From assembly GCA_003133025.1 (NCBI GenBank), contig PKZK01000111.1, forward strand, positions 22,190-34,910: a DNA stretch of 12,721 bases, given 5' to 3'. This DNA is from Vulcanimicrobiota bacterium. Its GTDB lineage: Bacteria; Vulcanimicrobiota; Vulcanimicrobiia; Vulcanimicrobiales; Vulcanimicrobiaceae. The translations under genes were made by a program, and so were the position numbers. The notes under the pieces are model-generated. The model was given only the letters and a program-made list of their open reading frames with translations, was not told where the DNA came from and searched no databases. Numbering within the stretch: the first letter of the stretch is position 1; every line of letters begins with the position of its first letter. This document shows, piece after piece, positions 1 through 12,721 of this stretch.

Positions 1-756
1 GATCCGATCGACGGCACGACGCTGGCCTCCAAGGGCGGTCACGGTGCGATTTCGGTCGTCGCGGCCGCCGAACGCGGCTCGCTCTTTCACACGCACATTC
101 CTTATATGGATAAGATCATCGTCGGCCCGTCCGGGCGGGGCGTGATCTCGATCGAGGCGAGCGTCGAAGACAACGTTCGCGCGCTGGCCAAGGCGATGGG
201 CCGCGCGGTCGCCGAGATCACCGTTGCGGTCATCGAGCGTCCGCGCAACGAACAGATCGTCGCGCAGATTCGCGAGGTCGGCGCGCGCGTGAGGCTCTTC
301 GGCGACGGCGACGTCGCCAACGGCATCATCGCTGCACTCGAGGAGCGCAGCCGCATCGACATGCTCATGGGCATCGGCGGCGCCACCGAGGGCGTGGTCA
401 CGGCGTGCGCCGTGCGCTGTTTGGGCGGCGACATGCAAGGCCGGCTCTGGTTGCGCCCGGGTGAAGAAGAGATCGCCGAACGCGAGGGCATCGACCCCAA
501 CGCCGTGCTCACGCTCGACGATCTGTGCAAGTCGGATCTCGCCATGCTCGCGGCTACGGGCGTCACCGACGGCGAATTTCTCCAAGGCGTCAGTTACGTG
601 CGCGGCAGCGCCTACACGCAGTCGATCATCATCTCGTCGCTCACGCACACCTTGCGCATGGTCGACGGCAAACACGACCTGCAAGCGTTCCTCAACCAAT
701 CGGCGGTCAACGGCATTCCCACTTCCAATCTCCTGAAGGAGCACGCAATCTCATGA
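1..756 (+). CDS. glpX: Class II fructose-1,6-bisphosphatase (GlpX), 5'-truncated by the window edge
   Basis: Frame 1 is open from base 1: DPIDGTTLASKG...YMDK...ERPRN...GDGDV...GIGGATEGV...ATGVTDG, which are GlpX motifs. The ATG at 106 is internal. Stop TGA at 754-756. Confidence 0.95.
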   Translation, partial: DPIDGTTLASKGGHGAISVVAAAERGSLFHTHIPYMDKIIVGPSGRGVISIEASVEDNVRALAKAMGRAVAEITVAVIERPRNEQIVAQIREVGARVRLFGDGDVANGIIAALEERSRIDMLMGIGGATEGVVTACAVRCLGGDMQGRLWLRPGEEEIAEREGIDPNAVLTLDDLCKSDLAMLAATGVTDGEFLQGVSYVRGSAYTQSIIISSLTHTLRMVDGKHDLQAFLNQSAVNGIPTSNLLKEHAIS

Positions 757-1808
757 GCAGCCCTTTGGCAGCGGTTGCCCAGGCGATGGTCGCCCCGGGC
801 AAAGGCATCCTCGCTGCGGACGAAAGCACCGGCACGGCCAATAAGCGCTTCGCGCCGCTGAACATTCCGCAGACCGAAGAGATGCGCGGCCGATACCGCG
901 AACTGCTGTTTACGGCGCCGCGCTTCGGCGAGTTCGTCAGCGGCGTCATTCTCTACGACGAGACGATCCGCCAAACGGGGCCGAGCGGGAAATCGCTCGA
1001 AGCGGTCATTGCGGCTTCGGGAGCGTTTCCCGGCATCAAGCTCGACACGGGCACGCACCCGCTCGCGCTCGGCGGACCGGACGAGAAGATAACCGAAGGG
1101 CTCGACGGCTTGGCCAAGCGCGTCGACGAGTACGTGAAGCTGGGCGCGAAGTTCGCCAAGTGGCGCGCCGTCATCGCCATCGATAACGGCATCCCCACGC
1201 AACGCGCGATCGTCGCCAACGCGCACGCGCTCGCGCGCTACGCCGCGATCTGTCAGGCCGGCGGCCTCGTGCCCATCGTGGAACCCGAGGTCTTGATCGA
1301 CGGCGAACATTCGAAGCATTCGCTCGAGCGCAGTTTCGAGGTGCACGAACGCGTGCTCTCGACCGTGTTCGAAGAACTCGCCGAAGCCGGGGTCAAGTTC
1401 GAGGAGATGATCCTCAAGCCGAGCATGGTCGCACCCGGTCAGCAGTCGGCGAAGGCCTCCGTGCACGAGGTCGCCGAGGCGACCGTGACGGTCTTGCTCC
1501 GCTGGGTCCCGGCGGCGGTTCCGGGCATCGCCTTCCTCTCGGGCGGGCAAGGCGATGAGGAAGCGACCGAGCATCTCAACGAGATCAACCTGATCGGCCG
1601 GAAGAAGCACGCCCCCTGGGCCCTGACCTTCTCCTACGGTCGTGCGCTCCAGCACGGCGCCCTGACCACCTGGCTCGGCTCCGAGGCCAACGTCGCCGCC
1701 GCGCAGGCCATCCTGACCCACCGGCTGCACATGAACAGCCTGGCCTCGCTCGGCCGTTATTCCTCGGATAGCGAGAAGGAACGGGAATTGGTAGGCGCGC
1801 CGGGCTGA
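753..1808 (+). CDS. fba: Class I fructose-bisphosphate aldolase, 351 aa
   Basis: Motifs GKGILAADES, FAKWR, VPIVEPE, ILKPSMV (Schiff-base Lys), FLSGGQ and FSYGRALQ. ATG at 753 overlaps the glpX stop (ATGA), with AAGGAG at 736-741. Confidence 0.96.
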   Translation: MSSPLAAVAQAMVAPGKGILAADESTGTANKRFAPLNIPQTEEMRGRYRELLFTAPRFGEFVSGVILYDETIRQTGPSGKSLEAVIAASGAFPGIKLDTGTHPLALGGPDEKITEGLDGLAKRVDEYVKLGAKFAKWRAVIAIDNGIPTQRAIVANAHALARYAAICQAGGLVPIVEPEVLIDGEHSKHSLERSFEVHERVLSTVFEELAEAGVKFEEMILKPSMVAPGQQSAKASVHEVAEATVTVLLRWVPAAVPGIAFLSGGQGDEEATEHLNEINLIGRKKHAPWALTFSYGRALQHGALTTWLGSEANVAAAQAILTHRLHMNSLASLGRYSSDSEKERELVGAPG

Positions 1809-3085: not shown

Positions 3086-5068
3086 ATGTTTGTGAGGATG
3101 TATGGACTCGCCGCGTTTTTCATTGCTGCCGCCGGCGCGCGGGCGAGCGCGGCCGACGTACCCTCACCCTCGCCGTCACCGACACCGTCACTCGCACCGA
3201 TCGGGAAAGTCACGGTTGCCACCGGCTCCTCACGCTCGCTGCATCAACTGCCGTTTCCCGCGGCGGCTTTCAATCCCGAACTGGTGTCGGGCGGCGACGG
3301 CGCGGCCGACGACCTCCTGCGAACGCTCCCGGGCATCGACCTCAACCGCGGTGCGTCGACGTTCGCGCCGTACGGGCTCACGCGCATCTCGATCGGCGGC
3401 GCGGGTACCGACCGCGGAGCGCTCTTCGTCGACGGCGTGCCCGGTCAGGACGGGTTCGGCGGTCAGGCCGACTGGTCGCTGATCCCGGCGCACGCGGTCG
3501 AAGACGCGCAGATTCTGATCGGGCCCGGTTCGGCGTTGTACGGTTCGGGAGCGATCGGCGGCGTGTTGTCGCTGCGCACGTTCGGGGCGGCCGACGTCGG
3601 TGCGCAACCGGTTGCCGACCTCGATTCCGGCATCTCTTCCCTGGGCAGCGATTCGACGTTGCTGGCGGGCACGCCGGCCGGCGACCACTGGCGGCTGGGT
3701 GTGTGGGGTGCAACGAGCCGCACGAGCTTCGTTTCGCTTCCACCCAACTCGCGCGCGCCCGGCTTCAACGGCGTCGCCACCACCGTGACCGATGCGATGC
3801 GCGCCACGGCCCGCTACACGGGCGGGCCGCTGACGCTCGACCTGGGCCTGGAAAACGGGAGCGACGCGCAACAGGAAGGCCGCACCAATTACGACTTCTG
3901 GCGCTCGGGATCCCAAGCCGATCTCCGCGCCACCGAATCGTTCGGGAACGATGCCGTGATCTTTCGTTCGTTCGTTCGGGAGAGTACGATCGTCAACGTG
4001 GCAGATTCGTTTCCCAAGGATCCCGGTGCCCTCTCGTACGTTCAACTCGTGCCGGATTCCGACGCCGGCCAATCGCTCGACTTCACGAGCGCGAGCGCGC
4101 ACTCCGATCTGCTGGTGCGCTTCGAAACGCGCGGCGTGACCGGGTACAATAGTCAGGCTTCGGCCAAGGACGTGCTCGAGAGTTCGGGCGACGGCAGGCA
4201 GCGTTACGATGCGTTCGCCGTGCAGGATGAAGTCAACAGCGGGCGCTTTCGCCTGGTGCTGGGACTACGCGGCGACGATATCGACACCCACGCCGAAGCG
4301 CTCAAAGAGGGCACCGTCGACCAAACCGCCGGCGCGATCAGCCCGCGCGTCGCGCTCGCGTATCTCTCCGGCGATTTCACGCTGCGGGCCTACGAGGGCG
4401 GCGGCTTTCGCGCGCCCTTTCTCAACGAACTCGTGCGCAGCTATCGCATCGGCGCAACCGAATATCTCTCCAACCTCAACCTCTTGCCGGAGCGCTCCAG
4501 TGCGGGCGGGGTCGGCGTCGATTACGCGCACGGTCCGTTGCGCGTGGCGCTCGATCTGCAGTCGACCGGCGTCTCCGACGCGCTGGATTTCAAAACGATC
4601 GCGACCAATGTCGAGATGCGTTCAAACGTCGGGAAGACGCGTACCGATGCGGCCTCGCTGATCGTCTCGCGCAGCGCCGGCTGCAATCGTTACGACGTGC
4701 AGTACGGCGATCGCGACGCCCGCGTTACCGCCGACGACGACCAAGCGTTGATCGGCAAGCGGTTGACCTACGTGCCCGCGCAGACGGCCTCGCTGGGTTG
4801 GACGCGGACCACGCAGACGCAGGTGAGCGTGCGCGTCGAGTATCTGGGCAAGACCTACGCCGACGATCTGAACGCCGAACCACTGGGCACGGCGGGATTG
4901 CTCGACGTTTCCTACGCGGTTCCGGCGGGCCGCGAGTCGACGCTCTCGATCGGCGCGAGCAACGCGACCGGCGCGCATTACCTCACCAGCCCCGACCGTC
5001 AGGGACCGCCTTCGAACGTCTGGTTGCGGCTGAACCTCGGTCCGCATCCCAAGCCCTGCGCGCCGTAA
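3086..5068 (+). CDS. TonB-dependent outer-membrane receptor, about 660 aa (start 3086 or 3098)
   Basis: Signal peptide ending ARASA, PSPSPSPTPS linker, plug motifs DLLRTLPG, FVDGVP and GPGSALYGSGAIGGV, barrel motifs SPRVAL, GFRAPFLNEL and LLPE. Confidence 0.92.
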   Translation: MFVRMYGLAAFFIAAAGARASAADVPSPSPSPTPSLAPIGKVTVATGSSRSLHQLPFPAAAFNPELVSGGDGAADDLLRTLPGIDLNRGASTFAPYGLTRISIGGAGTDRGALFVDGVPGQDGFGGQADWSLIPAHAVEDAQILIGPGSALYGSGAIGGVLSLRTFGAADVGAQPVADLDSGISSLGSDSTLLAGTPAGDHWRLGVWGATSRTSFVSLPPNSRAPGFNGVATTVTDAMRATARYTGGPLTLDLGLENGSDAQQEGRTNYDFWRSGSQADLRATESFGNDAVIFRSFVRESTIVNVADSFPKDPGALSYVQLVPDSDAGQSLDFTSASAHSDLLVRFETRGVTGYNSQASAKDVLESSGDGRQRYDAFAVQDEVNSGRFRLVLGLRGDDIDTHAEALKEGTVDQTAGAISPRVALAYLSGDFTLRAYEGGGFRAPFLNELVRSYRIGATEYLSNLNLLPERSSAGGVGVDYAHGPLRVALDLQSTGVSDALDFKTIATNVEMRSNVGKTRTDAASLIVSRSAGCNRYDVQYGDRDARVTADDDQALIGKRLTYVPAQTASLGWTRTTQTQVSVRVEYLGKTYADDLNAEPLGTAGLLDVSYAVPAGRESTLSIGASNATGAHYLTSPDRQGPPSNVWLRLNLGPHPKPCAP

Positions 5069-5090: not shown

Positions 5091-8000
5091 CTACTTGTGC
5101 TTGTCGGTCAAGCCGAAGACTTCGACGGTGCCCTGCGAGGCGACGTAGACTTTTCCGTTTGCCACGAGGGGGCTCAAGAAGCTGTTGCTCTTGGGCCAGG
5201 TTCCGGCCGGCGACGAGTAGAGCAGCGTCGCCAGGTTCGTCGCGTCGTAAGCCTCGAGCGTCACCGTGGTGCCGCGCTCGATCTCCCACAGGATGCCGGT
5301 TCCCGCCGTCTGCCCGTTCGAGGAGACGACCGGTAGCGAGCCGCCGTAGCCTGCGTTACTGGAGCCCGTCGAGGTCAGCGTGAGCGACGGTTTGCCCGAG
5401 GGTGAAGTCGACAACTGGTAGGCGTGGATCGTGTCGCCGCCCGTTTGGTAGTAGACGAACTGTCCCGTCGGCCCGCTGTAGTAGGCCGGACCACCCCACA
5501 CGCCGCCGCCGGAGTCGTTGATCACTTGCAGGGCGCCCGTGTCGTTGGTGTGTTCGTGACCCAGCTTGTCCCGATCGAGCAGATACAGCACCGAGGCTTT
5601 GCCCATCGCGACGGCTAGGTTCGGATACTGCGTTCCGGTTTGCTGCGGTATGAGCATCACGCCGCCCGATCCGAAGTCCGTATCGCCGCTGTTGTACTGA
5701 TTCCAGTTGGCCGGGGTGAAGTAGTCGACGATCTTCGAGAGGTTGTTCTTGACTCTGATCACGCTCTCGCCGTAATTGAGTCCGCCCTTCGTATCGGCGT
5801 TGAACGCACCGTTGCCGGTGATCGCGAAGATGTTGCCCTTGGCGTCGACGGCCGGAGCGAAGCCGGTCATCCAGATGCTCGAGAGCAGATACCCGGCGCC
5901 GTCTTCGATCGTGGGCACGGCGGCTTCTTGCGCCAGGCTCGCGTTGTAACGCAGGAGCCAGCCGACGATGTTGCCCGCGTTGTTGTCGCAGTGCGACCCG
6001 AGGCCCACGTAGAGCGAGTTGTTGGCCCACACCAGGCTGGTACGGCTGTACTGATTTTGCGAATCGAGGTCGATCGTGCCGCCGTTGCTCAACACGACCG
6101 ACGCCGAGAGGTCGACCGGCGTGACCTTGTCGGTCAACGTGGCGATGCTCAACGCGTGCAGTGCGAGATGGAAGACGCCCTGTGAGGGTTCCACGTTGGT
6201 CACGACGTAGATCGTGCCCGACTTCAGATCGATGGCCGGCGTCGAGGTGACGCCGTACACGGGCTGAATGTCGCCGCAGCCGATATCGTTGGCTTTTGCG
6301 GCCGTGCCCAGGCTGATGAAGTTGAGTTGCGCGCCCGAATCCGCGTCGAACTCGTACACGCTGGCGTTCTCGGTGGCCACGATCAGCACGTTGTGCGTGC
6401 CCTGGCTGCCCAGGTTGTAGTTCGCGACGTAGAGCGGTTGTGCGAGTACGCCGCCGTCGACGTTGAGCGTCTGCAGCAGCCCGAAGGAGCCCGAATTCAC
6501 GTTACTGGTGGTCAAGATCGTTTCGTTCGGGTTCCAACCGGTGTGCAGCAGGTCGTTGTGATAGATCGACGAGCTGCTGGGCTGGGTTTTCGAGCCGTTT
6601 AGATCGTGCACGGCGACCGTCGCGCTCTGGATCTTGAATGAGGCGCCCGCGTCGCGCGTGGCGTTGATCAGGATCTGCTCGCCGGGATGCGCCGCGCGGT
6701 AAACGATCGTGTAGACGCCCGGCCGATTCTCCACGTCGTCGCGCAGAATCTGTCCGGAGTACACTTTGCCGTCGAGCGTTGCGGTGATGTGCGCGGTAGC
6801 GCGCTCGACGGCTGCGTAGATGCGCACCACGCGTTCGGTGGTGTCGGCCGGTGCGGCGACCGCCCAGCCCGCACCCGTGCGGGTCATGCCGAGCGGTCTG
6901 CCTTCGGTCGCGGGCCGCGCATCGGCGAGGGGCTGGCCGAGGCCGATCGCGACGCCCGGCTTGCCGCCCAGGTTCAGGCTCACCGGTGCGGCGAGCGGCT
7001 TGACCGCGTTCGGCCGGAAGGCCGGCTGCTTGATGGCGTCGTGTTCGGCGACGAACGGTGACGCGTCGGTGCCGATGATCAACGGCGCGTTCGGATTGGC
7101 GCGTCCGCGGCCGAGCCGCAGCACGTCGGGCGAATCCGCCGAGACGACGCGTCCGTTGCCGAACTCGCTGCGGAAGATGGCCAGAATCTGCGCCGAACGC
7201 ACCGAGTACCAGGCGCGCACCAGCGCGTCGGGGTCGTTGCCGCCCAAGTGGAAGTTGCGCGCGGCCATCAGCGCCCAATTATAGGTCGGGCTGTTTCGTC
7301 TGAAGATATCTTCGTTGCCGTACTGCAAGACGGGACGCAGGCTCGGATCGAGCGTGCGGCGCGACTGGTTGGCGAGGTTGCGAATGTAGCCGTCGGTCGC
7401 GCCGACCGGCACGGAGAGCCACGGATTCGCGCCGGTCAGATTGGCCAGCAGGCTCATGTACTCGACGGCGGCGCCGTTGGGCGCGGCCTGGGTCGGCCGC
7501 AGCACGCGCGGGCGCAGCGGCGCCACGGCGGAGTCCGCGAACGAGCCGGCGCGCATCCAAGCGCTGAAGCGTATGACGTTTGCGCCCGAGACCGACTGTA
7601 CGAATGAGGCGAGGAACGGATGTGCGGCGGCGCTGCCTTCGAGCCCGGGCAAAATCAGGCGAACGTTACGGAGCGGATTTTGCGTATCCATGGCCGTGAC
7701 GCGCAGGCGCAGTCCCGTTCCGTCGTTCGGTCTCACGTGCACGACCAGCCGACCCGGTCCGCCGCCCTCGGCGAGCGAACCGCCCGAAACCTCGAAACGT
7801 CCGCTGCCGGCGAACAGCAGCGTGTAGTCGCCGGACGGGTAGCGTTCCGTCGTGTATACGATTCGCTCGGCGGCTTGGCCGGGCGAAAGCGAAAGCAGAT
7901 TGCCTTCGGGATCGAGCTTCAACGGCGCGCTCGACGTGCTGAGCCATGGCGACGCCTGTTGCAACGCGTCGGCGAAAATCAACCCGCTGCCGGAGCCGGG

Positions 8001-8123
8001 GCCGAGTTCGCGCAATTCGACGGTGCGTGGCGGTACGATCGCGGCCGCGGCCGGCAAGCACTGCAGGACGAACGTCGAGACGAGCGCTGCGACGATCCAA
8101 GGGGCTCTTCCATTCCGAAACAC
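5091..8123 (-). CDS. Large exported multidomain protein, about 1010 aa: degenerate glycoside-hydrolase-like region, small beta domain and PQQ-like beta-propeller
   Basis: GTG at 8123 with AAAGG 9 nt upstream gives a clean signal peptide (MFRNGRAPWIVAALVSTFVLQCLPAAAA), preferred over ATG 8195. C-terminal half has HNDxxHTGWNPNETILT, AQPLYV, TSTPAID, DTDFGSGG and PLVANGKVYV, typical of PQQ-repeat-annotated propellers. Confidence 0.85.
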   Translation of the reverse strand: MFRNGRAPWIVAALVSTFVLQCLPAAAAIVPPRTVELRELGPGSGSGLIFADALQQASPWLSTSSAPLKLDPEGNLLSLSPGQAAERIVYTTERYPSGDYTLLFAGSGRFEVSGGSLAEGGGPGRLVVHVRPNDGTGLRLRVTAMDTQNPLRNVRLILPGLEGSAAAHPFLASFVQSVSGANVIRFSAWMRAGSFADSAVAPLRPRVLRPTQAAPNGAAVEYMSLLANLTGANPWLSVPVGATDGYIRNLANQSRRTLDPSLRPVLQYGNEDIFRRNSPTYNWALMAARNFHLGGNDPDALVRAWYSVRSAQILAIFRSEFGNGRVVSADSPDVLRLGRGRANPNAPLIIGTDASPFVAEHDAIKQPAFRPNAVKPLAAPVSLNLGGKPGVAIGLGQPLADARPATEGRPLGMTRTGAGWAVAAPADTTERVVRIYAAVERATAHITATLDGKVYSGQILRDDVENRPGVYTIVYRAAHPGEQILINATRDAGASFKIQSATVAVHDLNGSKTQPSSSSIYHNDLLHTGWNPNETILTTSNVNSGSFGLLQTLNVDGGVLAQPLYVANYNLGSQGTHNVLIVATENASVYEFDADSGAQLNFISLGTAAKANDIGCGDIQPVYGVTSTPAIDLKSGTIYVVTNVEPSQGVFHLALHALSIATLTDKVTPVDLSASVVLSNGGTIDLDSQNQYSRTSLVWANNSLYVGLGSHCDNNAGNIVGWLLRYNASLAQEAAVPTIEDGAGYLLSSIWMTGFAPAVDAKGNIFAITGNGAFNADTKGGLNYGESVIRVKNNLSKIVDYFTPANWNQYNSGDTDFGSGGVMLIPQQTGTQYPNLAVAMGKASVLYLLDRDKLGHEHTNDTGALQVINDSGGGVWGGPAYYSGPTGQFVYYQTGGDTIHAYQLSTSPSGKPSLTLTSTGSSNAGYGGSLPVVSSNGQTAGTGILWEIERGTTVTLEAYDATNLATLLYSSPAGTWPKSNSFLSPLVANGKVYVASQGTVEVFGLTDKHK

Positions 8124-8256
8124 AGGTTCGCGCCTTTCTCGGGCAAGGAACGGGGCGAAGGCTTCGTCTCTTCGGTCGAGTCGGAGGGTTCCCATGCTCG
8201 GAGGGCTCGCAGGAGCGCAGGCTGTGCGCCTGGTCGCTACGCCGGTAGTCTCTACG

Positions 8257-9252
8257 CTACTGTCCCACGGGTTCGGGCGGCGCGAGTTTGCGCCTGAGGC
8301 AGAGGCCCAATGTATCCCGGCCGCCGTGCGCGCAGGCGTCTCGATATCCCGAGGGTATCGAAAACAGATCTCCCGCCTCGTGGAGCGCGCGAATGTGTCC
8401 GCGCTCGTTGACGATGCCGAGGTCGCCGCGCATGAAGGCGGGCTTCGAGCCCTTTGCCTCGAGGGTCAGCGAGGAACGGAAGATCAGGAAGCGTTTGTCG
8501 CCGCCGCAGGTGTTGCCGAAGAGCGTCATGATCGGCACCGCGCGCGGCACGGGACACGGCTCGGGCAGCGCAGCCGTGTACGTCGTGATGCGGAAGCGTT
8601 GCTTGGACGCGACGTGGGCGCGTGGTCGCGCGAAAAAGGCGAAGTCGTAGTCGGCCCGCCGGCCCTGCGCGCGGATGCCGTCGACCACGATCGGTGCGAG
8701 CGCCGCGAAGCTTCCGGGCAAGCGCGTCACATGGTAGTAGTCGCGCCCGAGCGCCGACCGGCAGCCGCGATCGCTCGCGCCGTAAAAGGCTTGCAAGATC
8801 TTGATGGAGTGGTAGTAGAGCTTGTGCGCCTCGTCGAGGACGATCATGTCGTTGCCTTTGGCCTTGCAGATCGTCACGATGCCTTGGGTTTCGACGCGCG
8901 TCTCGCCGCCGAAAGCGGCGACCCGGTAGAGTAGCCCCGGCTCGTACTGCCGGCGATAGTCCGGGTGGGCGCGAATGAATTCGGCGTAGTCGCGGTCGAA
9001 GCGGCCCGGCTCGCGCATCGGCATCGCGCAGCCGCGCACGCATTGAACGGGCAAGTCCAGTTGGTCGAAGGCGATGTCGGGACCCGCGCTCGCATTCGCC
9101 GGCGGCGCCGCGGCGCGCGCCGGTCCGGCCGCGACCAACGCTATGGCCAGCGCGAATGCGACGGCTATCCTGTCGGGACGCAGCGTGCGCAACGCTAACG
9201 CGCCGAACGGCGGGCCGCCCGCCGTCAGGACGGAAAGCGTACGTAGCGTCAT
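8257..9252 (-). CDS. Hypothetical exported Cys-rich protein, possibly DUF4412-like (start uncertain: ATG 9252 or TTG 9192)
   Basis: Signal peptide IAVAFALAIALVAAGPARA; 8 Cys; MIVLDEAHKLYY and LFSIPSGY recall DUF4412-type motifs. Protein-like composition, unlike the overlapping ORFs. Confidence 0.65.
   Translation of the reverse strand: MTLRTLSVLTAGGPPFGALALRTLRPDRIAVAFALAIALVAAGPARAAAPPANASAGPDIAFDQLDLPVQCVRGCAMPMREPGRFDRDYAEFIRAHPDYRRQYEPGLLYRVAAFGGETRVETQGIVTICKAKGNDMIVLDEAHKLYYHSIKILQAFYGASDRGCRSALGRDYYHVTRLPGSFAALAPIVVDGIRAQGRRADYDFAFFARPRAHVASKQRFRITTYTAALPEPCPVPRAVPIMTLFGNTCGGDKRFLIFRSSLTLEAKGSKPAFMRGDLGIVNERGHIRALHEAGDLFSIPSGYRDACAHGGRDTLGLCLRRKLAPPEPVGQ
9207..9225 (-). terminator. 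GC-rich hairpin downstream of the glyoxalase gene, possible weak terminator
   Basis: Perfect 8-bp stem ACGGCGGG-CCG-CCCGCCGT with no real U tract. Confidence 0.3.
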
Positions 9253-9270
9253 GCGCGCCGCTTTCGGCGG

Positions 9271-9669
9271 CTAGGTGATCGGGCCTTGGCGCGCTTCGAG
9301 CAACTCGACGGGGATGCCGTTGGGATCTTCGACGAAGGCCAGCCAGCGGCCGCCGCTCGGCGATTTCTTGGGTCCGCTGGTCACCTTCACGCCCGCGGCG
9401 CGCAGCTTCTCGATCTCCGCCGGAAAGTCGCCTTCGAGCTCGAGCGCGAGATGCTCGTAGCGGTTGCCCGTTTGGTACGGCGGATGGTCCTCGAGATCGT
9501 ACACGAGTTCGATGTACGCGTTCCAATCGGCGCCGACGAAGGCCATGTCGGCGTTGCCCGGATAGTGCAGGGGGCCGTCGAGCAACTTCAAGCCCAAGTG
9601 CTTGGTGTAGAAGTCGATCGACTGCTGCATGTCGTTCACGAAGATCGAGGTGTGCAGGTAACGGGACAA
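9271..9669 (-). CDS. VOC family glyoxalase I (lactoylglutathione lyase)-like protein, 132 aa
   Basis: LHT..V.D.Q.SIDFYTK.LG, AFVG, IELVY, HLAL and AFVEDPNG..VEL; metal ligands H6, E54, H73, E122. TTG start with AGGAG 6 nt upstream. Confidence 0.92.
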   Translation of the reverse strand: MSRYLHTSIFVNDMQQSIDFYTKHLGLKLLDGPLHYPGNADMAFVGADWNAYIELVYDLEDHPPYQTGNRYEHLALELEGDFPAEIEKLRAAGVKVTSGPKKSPSGGRWLAFVEDPNGIPVELLEARQGPIT

Positions 9670-9683
9670 GACGGGCTCCTGTG

Positions 9684-10001
9684 TCAGCGTACGGCGCGGA
9701 GAGGAACGTCGGGTGCGGCTTCCGGCTCCCGGATCCTGCCCACCAGCAGGCTCAGGTAACGCAGGCAGCAGACCCGCAGGAACGAGGCGAAATTCTTCGC
9801 CTCGTCCCGCTCCTCGAGAAGTTCGTCGTAAAGCTTAGCGACGAGTTGATTGGTGGTCAATCCCTCGCGAGACGCCATCTCGAGTAAGACGTCCCAGAAG
9901 AGATTCTCGATCCTGATCGTGGTCAAGACCCCGCGAATGCGGACGGACCTCGTTCGCGATTCGTACAGGATCGCATCCGCCTTCGCGTAGATCTGGCACA
10001 T
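9684..10001 (-). CDS. Ribbon-helix-helix (RHH_4-like) DNA-binding protein, 105 aa
   Basis: MCQIY...YESRTRSVRIRGVLTTIRIENLFWDVL...NFASFLRVCCLRY. It is the C-terminal 105 aa of ORF 9684..11321. The ATG overlaps the GMC stop (TGATG). Confidence 0.9.
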   Translation of the reverse strand: MCQIYAKADAILYESRTRSVRIRGVLTTIRIENLFWDVLLEMASREGLTTNQLVAKLYDELLEERDEAKNFASFLRVCCLRYLSLLVGRIREPEAAPDVPLRAVR

Positions 10002-11569
10002 CAGACGGTCTGCTTGCTCATCGCCGACGCGATGTAGTCGGCTTGCCTGATCGCGAGCGTCACGATCGTCAGCGTCGGGTTCTCGGCGGCGCTGGTGGTG
10101 AATTGGCTGCCGTCGGAGATGAAGAGGTTCTTCACGTCGTGCGTCTGGCCGTGCTTGTTCACCACGCCGAGCTTGGGATCGTTGCTCATGCGCGCGGTAC
10201 CGAGGTTGTGCGTCGAGGGATACGGCGGCGTTTCGATCACGCTCTTGGCGCCGACCGCCCGGTACACGTTGCCGCCCTGCTGGAAGGCGTGGGCGCGCAT
10301 CGCCAGGTCGTTGGCGTGATCGTCGTAGTGCACGTTGGGCACCGGCTGACCGAACTGGTCCTTTACGGCCGTGTTGAGCGTGACGCGGTTGGTTTCGCGC
10401 GGCATGTCTTCGCCGACGATCCACATGCCGGCCATATTGGTGTAGCCGTCGAGCGCGGCGGTGAAGTCCGAACCCCACGCGCCCGGGTTGATGAACGCGG
10501 CCATGAACGGCAGGCCGAGCGAGATCGTCTCCATCTCGTAGCCGCCCACGAAGCCACGGCTCGGTTTGAGCGCCGCTTCGTCCTGGATGATGCCGGCCAT
10601 GGTGGTGCCGCGCCACATGTGCACCGGCTCGTCGAAGACCGCGTACACGGAGGCCGTGAGGTGGCGCATGTAGTTGCGGCCGACCTGGCCCGAGCTGTTG
10701 GCCAATCCATCCGGGAATTGGTTCGAGGCCGAATTGAGCAGCAGTCGCGGTGTCTCGATCGAGTTGGCGGCCACGGCGACGATCCGCGCTTTCTGGCGCT
10801 GCGTCTTGCCCGCCGCATCGACGTACACCACCGCGGTCGCCTTGCCCGCCGCGTTGGTTTCGATCTGCACGACGTGCGACTGAGGCCGCAGGTCGAGATG
10901 GCCCGTCTCTTCGGCGAGCGGGATCTCGGTGTAGAGCGTCGACCACTTCGCGCCCGACTTGCAGCCCTGGAAGCAGAAGCCCATCTGCAAGCACGACGAA
11001 CGATGGTCGCGGAACTTGCTGTTGATCGCCATGTGCCCGGTGCTGCACTTCGTGTAGCCGAGTTTGGTCGCGCCGTTGTAGAGCACTTTGAAGTTGTTGT
11101 TGCCGGGCAGGCCCGGATTGCCGTTGGTGCGCGTGACGCCCATCTTGTGCTCGGCCTTGGCATAGTACGGCGCGAGCTCGGCCAGGCCGATCGGCCAGTC
11201 GGCGAGGTTGGCCCCCTCGAGCTTGCCGTAGTTTGTCAGCGCCTTGAACTCGTGCTCCTGAAGGCGCAGCGAAGCGCCGGCCCAGTGCGTGGTGGTGCCG
11301 CCCACCGTCTTGCACGTCCACGCCGGCAGGTTGGGGAAGTCGGTTGCGACGCGCCAGTTGCCGGAGGTCGTGCGCTTATCGAGCCAGGCGAGCTGATTGA
11401 ACGACTCCCACTCGTCCTGGATGAACGTTTGCGACGATTCGCGCTTGCCCGCCTCGAGCAGCACGACCTTGATGCCCTTCTGGCACAGTTCGTTGGCTAG
11501 GGTTCCGCCGCCGGCGCCCGAGCCGATGATGACGACGGCCGTATCGTCGTTGTGTGCGATTGCTGCCAT
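10001..11569 (-). CDS. GMC family FAD oxidoreductase (sugar/sugar-acid dehydrogenase large-subunit type), 522 aa
   Basis: IIGSGAGG, VGGTTTHWAG, CLQMGFCFQGC, ETPRLLLNS, GLANSSGQVGRNYM, HNLGTARM and NPTLT. GAGGA RBS; no signal peptide. Confidence 0.96.
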   Translation of the reverse strand: MAAIAHNDDTAVVIIGSGAGGGTLANELCQKGIKVVLLEAGKRESSQTFIQDEWESFNQLAWLDKRTTSGNWRVATDFPNLPAWTCKTVGGTTTHWAGASLRLQEHEFKALTNYGKLEGANLADWPIGLAELAPYYAKAEHKMGVTRTNGNPGLPGNNNFKVLYNGATKLGYTKCSTGHMAINSKFRDHRSSCLQMGFCFQGCKSGAKWSTLYTEIPLAEETGHLDLRPQSHVVQIETNAAGKATAVVYVDAAGKTQRQKARIVAVAANSIETPRLLLNSASNQFPDGLANSSGQVGRNYMRHLTASVYAVFDEPVHMWRGTTMAGIIQDEAALKPSRGFVGGYEMETISLGLPFMAAFINPGAWGSDFTAALDGYTNMAGMWIVGEDMPRETNRVTLNTAVKDQFGQPVPNVHYDDHANDLAMRAHAFQQGGNVYRAVGAKSVIETPPYPSTHNLGTARMSNDPKLGVVNKHGQTHDVKNLFISDGSQFTTSAAENPTLTIVTLAIRQADYIASAMSKQTV

Positions 11570-11594
11570 GTTCGTATTCCTCGCTCTCTCGACG

Positions 11595-12167
11595 CTACAG
11601 CACGCCGACGGTGGGGCTGGCCGCCGCGGGCGGATTGGGAAGCCACGTCAGGTCGTTGAAGCCGCGGTGGATGTAGCCGCCCTTCGGCCACGAAGCGCCC
11701 TGATAACCGAAGTGCGCGAAGGCCAACTCGTTGTTGTACAGCGAGGTGATGCACGTCGAGCGGACCTTGGCGAAGTACGCAGTTTTCTCGATCGCCTTCG
11801 CTGCCGCCAGGCGCGCGGCGGGCGTGGCCGCGGCGAAGTTGCCGCCCGCAGCCGAGTCGAGCGAAGCGGTCCCGTCGCGCAGAAGCGACGCGGTCGCGGG
11901 GTCTTTCGCGGCGACGTCGAGGTCCTTGACCAACATCGCGTAGACCGCGGTGGGCAGCGTGGCGTGCGGGTAGAGCGTTTGCCCGAAGGCCAGGATCGTC
12001 TCGCCGTCGTGTTGCGAGAGCGTCTGGAGTTCCAGCGCCCAGGCGCGCGTCGGCGCGAGCGTGGCCAGCGCGGACGTCGCGGCGATGGTGCCCGTGAGCA
12101 CGGCGGCGGTCCGGCGGATCATGTCACGCCGCGTAAGTGCATTCTGCTGTGAAGCGCCCTCGTCCAT
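11595..12167 (-). CDS. Tat-signal small subunit (gluconate 2-dehydrogenase subunit 3 / hitchhiker-like), 190 aa
   Basis: LTRRDMI twin-arginine motif, hydrophobic region and AWA cleavage site; C-terminal FGYQGAS..KGGYI.RGFNDL.WL. AGGAGG RBS at 12173-12178; 25 nt upstream of the GMC gene. Confidence 0.9.
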   Translation of the reverse strand: MDEGASQQNALTRRDMIRRTAAVLTGTIAATSALATLAPTRAWALELQTLSQHDGETILAFGQTLYPHATLPTAVYAMLVKDLDVAAKDPATASLLRDGTASLDSAAGGNFAAATPAARLAAAKAIEKTAYFAKVRSTCITSLYNNELAFAHFGYQGASWPKGGYIHRGFNDLTWLPNPPAAASPTVGVL

Positions 12168-12243
12168 TACAGCCTCCTATCTGGACTCAGCACGATGCGT
12201 AGACCAGCGGGAACAAAGTTCCTCCACCGGCATCGGTGACCGT

Positions 12244-12285
12244 ATCTTATTTGTGCGACGCGCGGAGGGGGTAATATCCTGTTAT
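12244..12285 (-). promoter_or_regulatory. Putative operon promoter (-10 TAAGAT) and palindromic operator
   Basis: Minus-strand TAAGAT at 12249-12244; imperfect inverted repeat GTAATA-TCC-TGTTAT at 12271-12285 in an AT-rich patch. Confidence 0.45.
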
Positions 12286-12316
12286 ATGGCCGTTCCGGGG
12301 CCGGGTCGCCGCGAGG

Positions 12317-12721
12317 TTACATCTGCGTCGGCTGCGGCGACGGTGCGGCCGGCGGGCTGAGCGCCATGCCTTGCACCGAGTCGAGCCCATCGCCGCTGAG
12401 ATACTCGGTCATCGATTTGAGCGTCGGGTGCGGCGAGATGTCGACCTCGCTCGAGAGATTCGACGAGTATATCTTGCCCTCGTTCGCGTCGAACGAGATT
12501 TGCGTCGGCGTTACGGACGTGCCCGGCGTCGTGGCGTATGGTTGCGTCTGGCCGGGGTGGAAGCCGTCGATGCGATTGGTTCCCTGCGTCTCCACCGCGA
12601 AAATGTTGCCCTTCGAGTCGACCAGCAGGCCCTGGGGTCCATCGAGCGTGATGCCGAGATCCCGGCCGGCTCCCGTACCGCCGGCGAAGTACTCGATGCC
12701 CCCGGCGCCGTCGCCGTCGGA
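12317..12721 (-). CDS. NHL/SMP-30-like beta-propeller protein, C-terminal part (5' end outside the window)
   Basis: Frame open from the window end: SDGDGAGGIEYFAGGTGAGRDLGITLDGPQGLLVDSKGNIFAVETQ...PTQISFDANEGKIY...VQGMALSP, with blade-like repeats. Stop TAA at 12319-12317. Confidence 0.8.
   Translation of the reverse strand, partial: SDGDGAGGIEYFAGGTGAGRDLGITLDGPQGLLVDSKGNIFAVETQGTNRIDGFHPGQTQPYATTPGTSVTPTQISFDANEGKIYSSNLSSEVDISPHPTLKSMTEYLSGDGLDSVQGMALSPPAAPSPQPTQM

Follow-up and report, generated by a model that had tools for sequence, protein, structure and literature searches.

A putative acetol-to-methylglyoxal-to-lactate gene module under a likely ribbon-helix-helix activator in a Vulcanimicrobiota bacterium

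What is the common task of a periplasmic-type dehydrogenase, a small regulator and a glyoxalase-like protein whose genes are packed together in a Vulcanimicrobiota bacterium? The question arises from a 12,721-nucleotide stretch of contig PKZK01000111.1 (assembly GCA_003133025.1, positions 22,190 to 34,910 of the forward strand), which is called the window throughout. Four open reading frames (ORFs) on its minus strand form the module. Gene 1 (11595..12167, 190 aa) encodes a small subunit with a twin-arginine translocation (Tat) signal that resembles GmcB, the beta subunit of acetol dehydrogenase (AceDH). Gene 2 (10001..11569, 522 aa) encodes a GMC large subunit of the acetol dehydrogenase type, gene 3 (9684..10001, 105 aa) a ribbon-helix-helix (RHH) protein of the RHH_4 family (PF13467, BP1543 family), and gene 4 (9271..9669, 132 aa, TTG start) a glyoxalase-I-like metalloprotein of the VOC type. 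The original prediction took the module for a system that senses and detoxifies reactive carbonyls. Our analysis points instead, with a probability of about 0.65, to a module that takes acetol through methylglyoxal to lactate and that is likely activated by the RHH protein.

The gene layout that had been predicted agrees with the coordinates. The four genes are co-oriented, with gaps of 25, -1 and 14 nt in the ORF list of the window. Ribosome-binding sites precede gene 1 (AGGAGG, 12173-12178), gene 2 (GAGGA, 11578-11582) and gene 4 (AGGAG, 9676-9680), and the -1 junction between the GMC and RHH genes is an overlapping TGATG. The third-position GC content of the module genes (0.79-0.90) resembles that of the flanking genes. 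In the Pfam search of the module proteins, GMC_oxred N and C, RHH_4 and Glyoxalase domains were all above their cut-offs, and the small subunit had no match. The predicted gene identities (Tat small subunit, GMC, RHH, glyoxalase-like) and the two-compartment layout were likewise correct.

The same prediction knew of no characterised substrate for this arrangement, which is wrong: close homologues are acetol dehydrogenases, characterised by a Methylocella knockout and by a purified enzyme of Methylacidiphilum fumariolicum SolV. Deletion of Msil_1641 in Methylocella silvestris leads to acetol accumulation, and the GMC gene is needed for growth on C3 substrates; Msil_1651-1649 encode the propane monooxygenase and Msil_1643 a lactoylglutathione lyase (PMC7364539). 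Purified SolV GmcAB converts acetol to methylglyoxal with a Km of 2.3 µM, GmcB bears a Tat signal, and cytochrome c can be used as acceptor (bioRxiv 10.64898/2026.06.11.731722). C3 growth substrates act as inducers of these genes in Methylocella and in SolV alike (PMC7364539; PMC8630023; PMC12235487). Methylocella tundrae T4 uses acetol for growth (bioRxiv 10.1101/2024.01.15.574570). In the accessible parts of two other papers, prmABCDGR is named and the GMC gene is not mentioned (PMC7660913, PMC6778391).

Two stand-ins were used for comparison with the characterised enzymes. M. tundrae represents Msil_1641 because its gene order (prmABCD-groEL-sigma54 regulator-RHH-cytochrome c-VOC-small subunit-GMC) fits the numbering from Msil_1651 to 1641; the two are matched by gene order and numbering rather than by the Msil_1641 sequence. 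For SolV GmcA, we used L094, the one verrucomicrobial-type cluster found in the motif scan. It is arranged as described for SolV (PMC8630023; PMC12235487), and its GmcA carries all 15 residues named in the SolV preprint at SolV numbering.

The window GMC is identical to the M. tundrae propane-cluster GMC (WP_134492896.1) in 368/522 positions (70%) and to GmcA of L094 in 279/515 (54%). In a FastTree phylogeny, a clade of 37 rows with 100% support contains the window GMC, L093 and L094, and paralogues of 30-36% identity fall outside. In this tree, the window GMC is placed together with a Vulcanimicrobiota sequence and others from the host phylum, adjoining Burkholderiales. By its sequence, it is a clade member bracketed by two characterised acetol dehydrogenase lineages, and the enzyme pair is a close relative of acetol dehydrogenase. 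The SolV active-site residues have their counterparts in H95, F200, H303, M324, T447, H454, E496 and N497, so that the FAD-linking His and the active-site His, His, Asn, Thr, Phe, Met and Glu listed in the preprint are all kept. The cavity residues named for SolV (Phe194, Met318, Thr451, His458, Asn501) are all identical in the window GMC. With acetol dehydrogenases as close homologues, the GMC is likely the source of a reactive carbonyl: acetol is very probably oxidised, and methylglyoxal is likely generated rather than removed. The module is better understood as a catabolic one that brings its own protection than as a general detoxification system.

The three-cysteine Fe-S motif of the GMC consists of C193, C199 and C203 and probably holds a [3Fe-4S] cluster. 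Leu194 and Met196 occupy the positions of the SolV copper ligands Asp188 and Cys190, and Trp160 of the small subunit occupies the place of the SolV beta-subunit Met. The CDQCGFCFQGCT motif of the [Cu-4Fe-4S] AceDH subtype, which is confined to L094 among the GMC motifs tallied, is absent; the window GMC has CLQMGFCFQGCK. Without the copper ligands, the window enzyme should not form a [Cu-4Fe-4S] cluster. The small subunit shows the twin-arginine motif TRRDMIR, is 31% identical to the M. tundrae subunit, and matches verrucomicrobial GmcB at its C-terminus (E 2e-06). TatC is encoded in the host genome (assembly 80% complete), and the enzyme pair is likely exported to the periplasm via the small subunit.

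Conservation of the module was surveyed in the best 80 of at least 592 confirmed GMC relatives. All four gene types occur together in 58/80 loci, so their clustering is not due to chance; among the 62 loci with adequate flanks, the figure is 49. A small-subunit homologue lies beside the GMC gene in 77/80 loci, an RHH gene in 60/80, a glyoxalase-I-like gene in 65/80, a small cytochrome c (searched with two seeds) in 20/80, and a monooxygenase within 6 kb in 6/80. Three loci (L009-L011) place the GMC pair directly after a copper membrane monooxygenase operon and have neither an RHH gene nor the site described below. Decaying copies were seen as a broken GMC gene in G256 (L132) and a split RHH gene in L014. 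In the host phylum sample, the GMC gene was rare (7/301 genomes), and so was RHH (2/61 relatives). Di-iron monooxygenases occur in 8/301 phylum genomes, namely in 3/7 GMC-positive versus 5/294 GMC-negative ones. Those of G257, G238 and G256 (L139-L144) are about 60% identical to Methylocella PrmA, and G302 and G303 also have di-iron monooxygenases. Acetone or propane oxidation is possible for host-family members with such genes.

The best PDB match of the VOC protein is E. coli glyoxalase I (E 1.4e-18). Its metal-ligand positions are filled by H6, E54, H73 and E122, a His/Glu/His/Glu set which we take to be the four metal ligands of glyoxalase I. The protein stays under all NCBIfam cut-offs (TIGR00068: 56.2 bits versus 120); it may act like glyoxalase I though not classed as one. 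What the original prediction overlooked is that the window protein is not an orthologue of the VOC of most modules, to which it is about 30% identical, but a core gene of the host lineage (orthologues in 55/61 lineage genomes, 67-86% identity) that often sits after purH. Counts of VOC orthologues, of gshB and of the thiol pathways below, and also the VOC tree, include five genomes flagged unpublished (G018, G020, G027, G048, G059); the tree is a quick tree of 65 rows that holds 21/60 proteobacterial VOCs.

The slot beside the GMC gene is occupied by four distant glyoxalase-I-like lineages: the proteobacterial VOC (58/80), a long glyoxalase I (7/80), the verrucomicrobial gloA and the host-lineage VOC. 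The long glyoxalase I is found in seven betaproteobacterial loci with the window's own gene order, and both of the two proteins tested pass TIGR00068. Four distant lineages in one slot are good indirect evidence that the GMC product is a 2-oxoaldehyde. Genome G096 carries the native VOC copy plus a second copy within the cassette, which suggests selection for linkage.

The RHH protein is a member of the BP1543/RHH_4 family (PF13467) by Pfam cut-off (89.7 bits versus 25), sequence (E 1.7e-28 to PDB 3kk4) and fold. Its model (mean pLDDT 85.3) has a strand at 25-32 and helices at 33-45 and 50-65, and reaches Z 13.2 against 3kk4 versus 4.4-6.5 against DNA-binding RHH domains. Cys2 is kept in 92/95 homologues and Cys79 in 91/95. 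The deposited BP1543 protein is labelled 'uncharacterized', and our literature searches, which covered few subscription papers, found no published description of an operator, regulon or signal of the family. To view RHH neighbourhoods without GMC bias, we used a 251-genome sample of one order plus seven hand-picked plasmid loci. Among the 24/251 RHH-positive genomes, 11 have the gene beside a DJ-1d-like gene, 10 beside GMC, one beside VOC only, and two beside neither. The earlier statement that this subfamily often adjoins GMC, VOC or DJ-1/PfpI genes is thus borne out in 22/24 genomes. The DJ-1/PfpI neighbour is most like Arabidopsis DJ-1d, which presumably has glyoxalase-type activity. DJ-1 proteins have been described as glutathione-independent glyoxalases, the importance of which is debated (PMC5412477). 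Fused RHH proteins gave four matches in 509 longer-protein candidates, a weak set with three single sequences and one joined to DJ-1. A divergent RHH_4 without the N-terminal Met-Cys start (L207, 1500-1750) possibly belongs to a separate subfamily; its neighbours look like DsrE and YeeE sulfur proteins.

The predicted RHH operator lies upstream of gene 1 at 12271..12288 (minus strand) and reads CATATA-ACAGGA-TATTAC, an asymmetric variant of GTAGTA-N6-TACTAC. A predicted -10 element, TAAGAT (12244..12249, minus strand), follows 21 nt after the palindrome, and the -35 position is non-consensus. A scan of 8000-12721 for consensus sigma70 promoters and terminators gave 0 sites and 0 terminators; the non-consensus promoter was located by comparative footprinting. 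The predicted 70-nt leader (12180-12240) contains short inverted repeats, e.g., CACCGATGCCGGTG and GGAACTTTGTTCC on the minus strand.

The palindrome emerged from a dyad scan, in which GTAG-N10-CTAC occurred in 6/12 DJ-1 upstream regions (shuffle maximum 2-3). A first matrix was built from 10 DJ-1 sites. With it, sites were found before the first enzyme gene in 30/34 GMC loci with RHH upstream, in 12/31 with RHH downstream, and in 2/17 loci without RHH; these 17 rows include one duplicate stretch and one that ends at the GMC stop and has a strong site. Under the refined matrix, no score along the full length of the remaining RHH-less loci exceeds 14.4, and slightly further upstream a site scoring 17-25 turns up for five of six RHH-positive misses. 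The genomes of 10 RHH-less loci gave no RHH match (0/10). No palindrome was found upstream of leading RHH genes (0/29), hence there is no sign of simple autoregulation there. A strict pattern was present in 14/24 RHH-positive versus 22/227 RHH-negative genomes. In 13 of these 14, no more than about 3 kb separate it from RHH, and eight of the 14 were also used in matrix training. Eleven further regions were inspected, one without upstream DNA, and 9/10 of the remainder carry the site. Genomes G403 and G348 each have a second site, which precedes a remote cytochrome c gene; further sites stand before the sigma54 regulator in two plasmid propane clusters, and another near VOC in Pseudoalteromonas. 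Paracoccus denitrificans PD1222 has a site upstream of PDEN_RS23440. On a Pseudoalteromonas plasmid (L172, 3085-3800), a near-perfect site immediately past the RHH stop points antisense through RHH into the divergent VOC gene.

With a model trained without the host lineage, the window site ranks first of 6,666,490 positions of its own genome. Under the first, DJ-1-only matrix, its score is 5.3, between the 95th (4.4) and 99th (8.0) percentiles of the null. Among lineage relatives, the three that have both RHH and upstream DNA show the site (one weak), and it is absent from the two that lack RHH. From this co-occurrence, it is likely that the RHH protein binds the palindrome. Two candidates were dismissed: the second-best own-genome site (C231) seems to fall inside a gene and is not counted as another regulon member, and a weak site in AT-rich L094 was disregarded, as the matrix background is unsuited to that locus.

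The promoter geometry informs the direction of control. An xAxxxT hexamer, which played no role in site selection, stands 21 ± 1 nt after the palindrome in 66/66 model sites, compared with 0-15 sites when five other offsets are tried. The palindrome is centred near -42, where class II activators sit, and the match to a -35 element is poor; transcription should start some 7 nt past the -10 box. The fixed -10 spacing, the poor -35 position and the site centre together suggest activation, and we somewhat favour an activator over a repressor. AmrZ is a precedent for an RHH activator only; the idea that it reads GTA boxes proved wrong, as its half-sites are GGC (PMC3325190).

In the proposed mechanism, in which the four genes likely make up an operon for acetol catabolism, the Tat-signal small subunit would carry the flavin/Fe-S dehydrogenase to the periplasm, where the GMC would oxidise acetol to methylglyoxal. 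From FAD, electrons would reach a mono-haem cytochrome c, the gene of which would lie outside the module, by way of the three-cysteine Fe-S cluster; none of three seeds found a cytochrome c partner in the own genome, and several CxxCH proteins are present. In the cytoplasm, methylglyoxal would be disposed of by VOC, which probably acts on it. The oxidation of lactate would then fall to one of the GlcD/GlcF-like complexes. The RHH protein would bind 12271-12288 and activate the operon. Its signal would most likely be methylglyoxal or acetol, read via Cys2/Cys79; that methylglyoxal is sensed through these thiols is conceivable, at rather less than even odds. Acetol could come from the environment, from 1,2-propanediol via a pyrroloquinoline quinone (PQQ) dehydrogenase, from a P450, from a gene outside the assembly, or from methylglyoxal reduction (PMC5297802). 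More tentatively still, RHH_4 may be a widespread, undescribed methylglyoxal-sensing activator with the site GTAGTA-N6-TACTAC near -42 and a two-cysteine switch. Its regulon would comprise acetol dehydrogenase, cytochrome c, glyoxalase I, the DJ-1 glyoxalase III and the sigma54 activator of the propane/acetone monooxygenase. The host lineage would use it for high-affinity acetol scavenging with a glyoxalase independent of glutathione, bacillithiol and mycothiol.

Could the module serve carbonyl stress or salvage rather than growth? The regulon would then answer endogenous methylglyoxal, and the GMC would recover acetol that the cell or its neighbours form by methylglyoxal reduction. The same RHH protein and palindrome serve DJ-1 genes without an adjoining GMC gene, and aldo-keto reductases and YqhD convert methylglyoxal to acetol (PMC5297802). 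Moreover, 74/80 loci have no monooxygenase within 6 kb, and neither a di-iron nor a copper monooxygenase was found in the host genome (80% complete), both of which also count against the acetol-to-lactate module. We nevertheless consider the salvage explanation unlikely because the GMC reaction produces a toxin from a less reactive compound. In addition, the characterised systems are C3-induced, with the M. silvestris gene needed for C3 growth, the propane clusters have the site before the sigma54 regulator too, and di-iron monooxygenases are commoner in GMC-positive (3/7) than in GMC-negative (5/294) phylum genomes. Another main substrate (glycolaldehyde, dihydroxyacetone or acetoin) could be converted to a 2-oxoaldehyde or diketone by the same chemistry. 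This would suit the stand-alone modules without a nearby acetone monooxygenase, and in the accessible part of the preprint, the substrates tried with SolV AceDH are acetol and four alcohols only (bioRxiv 10.64898/2026.06.11.731722); the identical cavity residues and the 70% identity to the Methylocella enzyme make it improbable. A sugar oxidase of the fructose/glucose dehydrogenase type without its tri-haem subunit is highly improbable. The best solved-structure matches of the GMC are indeed the large subunits of fructose (E 2.8e-50) and glucose dehydrogenases, with which it has the three-cysteine motif in common, but they fall well short of its 54-70% identity to acetol dehydrogenases, and AceDH was apparently absent from the PDB copy searched. 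In the surroundings of the 80 loci, neither a tri-haem cytochrome nor a cluster for sugar transport was seen repeatedly.

The enzymes may also act as proposed while another factor reads the palindrome, the RHH protein represses, or VOC is a passenger; we rate this slightly below the change of substrate. Co-occurrence cannot identify a binder, but site and RHH are gained and lost jointly in Alpha-, Beta- and Gammaproteobacteria and in the host lineage. Contact of the right half-site with the -35 position would be in line with repression as well. VOC, often found after purH, is linked to the GMC gene in 3/8 lineage genomes examined (host, G096, G257) and unlinked in the five other GMC-positive ones; the second VOC copy in the G096 cassette argues for selected linkage instead.

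Besides that loose linkage, further observations weigh against the acetol-to-methylglyoxal-to-lactate module. No acetol source was identified in the host genome (80% complete), which besides lacking a recognised monooxygenase of the above types has just one P450 locus and three PQQ dehydrogenase homologues. We take Arg9 and Asn60 of E. coli GloA to be glutathione-binding; the window VOC has F10 and D58 at these places. Phe and Asp occur in 36/36 aligned lineage VOCs, and Arg and Asn are kept in 28 proteobacterial ones. No gshB above the cut-off was found in 61 genomes or in the own, 80% complete genome, bshC and mshC were each above the cut-off in 0/31 relatives, and gloB in the host genome was not; MshC matches proved to be cysteinyl-tRNA synthetase (one checked). 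A GCS2-family gene is present in 6/31 genomes, host included. As to the operator, the window site is asymmetric, one of the nine further-region sites is identical to that of a training locus, and no site was found near the RHH genes at L170, L171 and L206/L247. Kinship among genomes and loci means that rows are not independent and that the counts overstate significance. RNA contigs cover 1/3 junctions; the GMC/RHH and RHH/VOC junctions are uncovered in these shallow data, which proves nothing. Low-depth, patchy contigs from four RNA libraries, two of which resemble one data set, reach into each of the four genes, and one 497-nt contig spans the small-subunit/GMC junction and may stem from DNA carry-over.

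Several neighbours of the module deserve mention. A 331-aa ORF (8257-9252, minus strand) starts 18 nt past the VOC stop and has a signal-peptide-like N-terminus and several cysteines. It has no credible family match in Pfam, no terminator-like site was found after VOC, and the transcript may run on into it; in the eight lineage loci checked, it does not adjoin the module. A 1034-aa predicted secreted protein (5091-8195, minus strand) has a multi-domain look and no Pfam or NCBIfam match. A TonB-dependent receptor gene (3086-5068, plus strand) is convergent with the minus-strand block, and at 106-1808 (plus strand) a glpX fructose-1,6-bisphosphatase gene overlaps one for a eukaryote-type class I fructose-bisphosphate aldolase.

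The enzymes of the module are known already; the new part is the RHH regulator with its predicted operator and regulon. Among the papers listed by a literature search naming the host phylum, none showed an acetol dehydrogenase; the assignment is ordinary in itself and extends the enzyme to this lineage. A structural-genomics family without a function gains an exact predicted operator, promoter geometry and regulon, which can be tested in cultured hosts, for instance Paracoccus denitrificans PD1222 or Methylocella, and characterised bacterial dicarbonyl sensors are few (PMC5297802). As the module is mostly found away from monooxygenases, acetol itself may be in common use as a substrate among bacteria. 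The core glyoxalase-I-like gene occurs in a lineage in which searches for three usual thiol pathways gave nothing above the cut-offs, which prompts one to ask which co-substrate it works with.

How does the module compare with known systems? The Methylocella propane cluster has a GMC of the same three-cysteine motif type, the Tat subunit, VOC and RHH partners and the upstream palindrome. It differs by its propane monooxygenase, groEL, sigma54 regulator and cytochrome c, none of which is in the putative operon of the window; the window order is small subunit-GMC-RHH-VOC, and its VOC is of another lineage (30% identity). SolV gmcAB-gloA-pmoCAB3 likewise combines a Tat small subunit, GMC and glyoxalase I, and the FAD-linking His and the catalytic His/His/Asn are kept in both. 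Unlike there, pmoCAB3, glcDF and ppsA are absent beside the window pair (PMC8630023; PMC12235487), and the SolV-type stand-in L094 comes with a sigma54 regulator and gave no RHH match. The tri-haem cytochrome c subunit of the fructose/glucose dehydrogenase type has no counterpart in the window. With E. coli GloA, the window VOC has the fold and the presumed metal ligands in common, whereas the presumed glutathione-binding Arg9 and Asn60 are replaced and the family cut-offs are not reached. NemR, a TetR-type, cysteine-based repressor of nemRA-gloA, and the AraC-type activator YqhC also control glyoxalase/aldehyde-reductase genes, and the use of cysteines by NemR is our proposed analogy for the RHH protein (PMC5297802). 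Their folds differ from RHH, and the predicted RHH regulon unites a dehydrogenase that likely makes methylglyoxal, the cytochrome of that enzyme, glyoxalase I and DJ-1.

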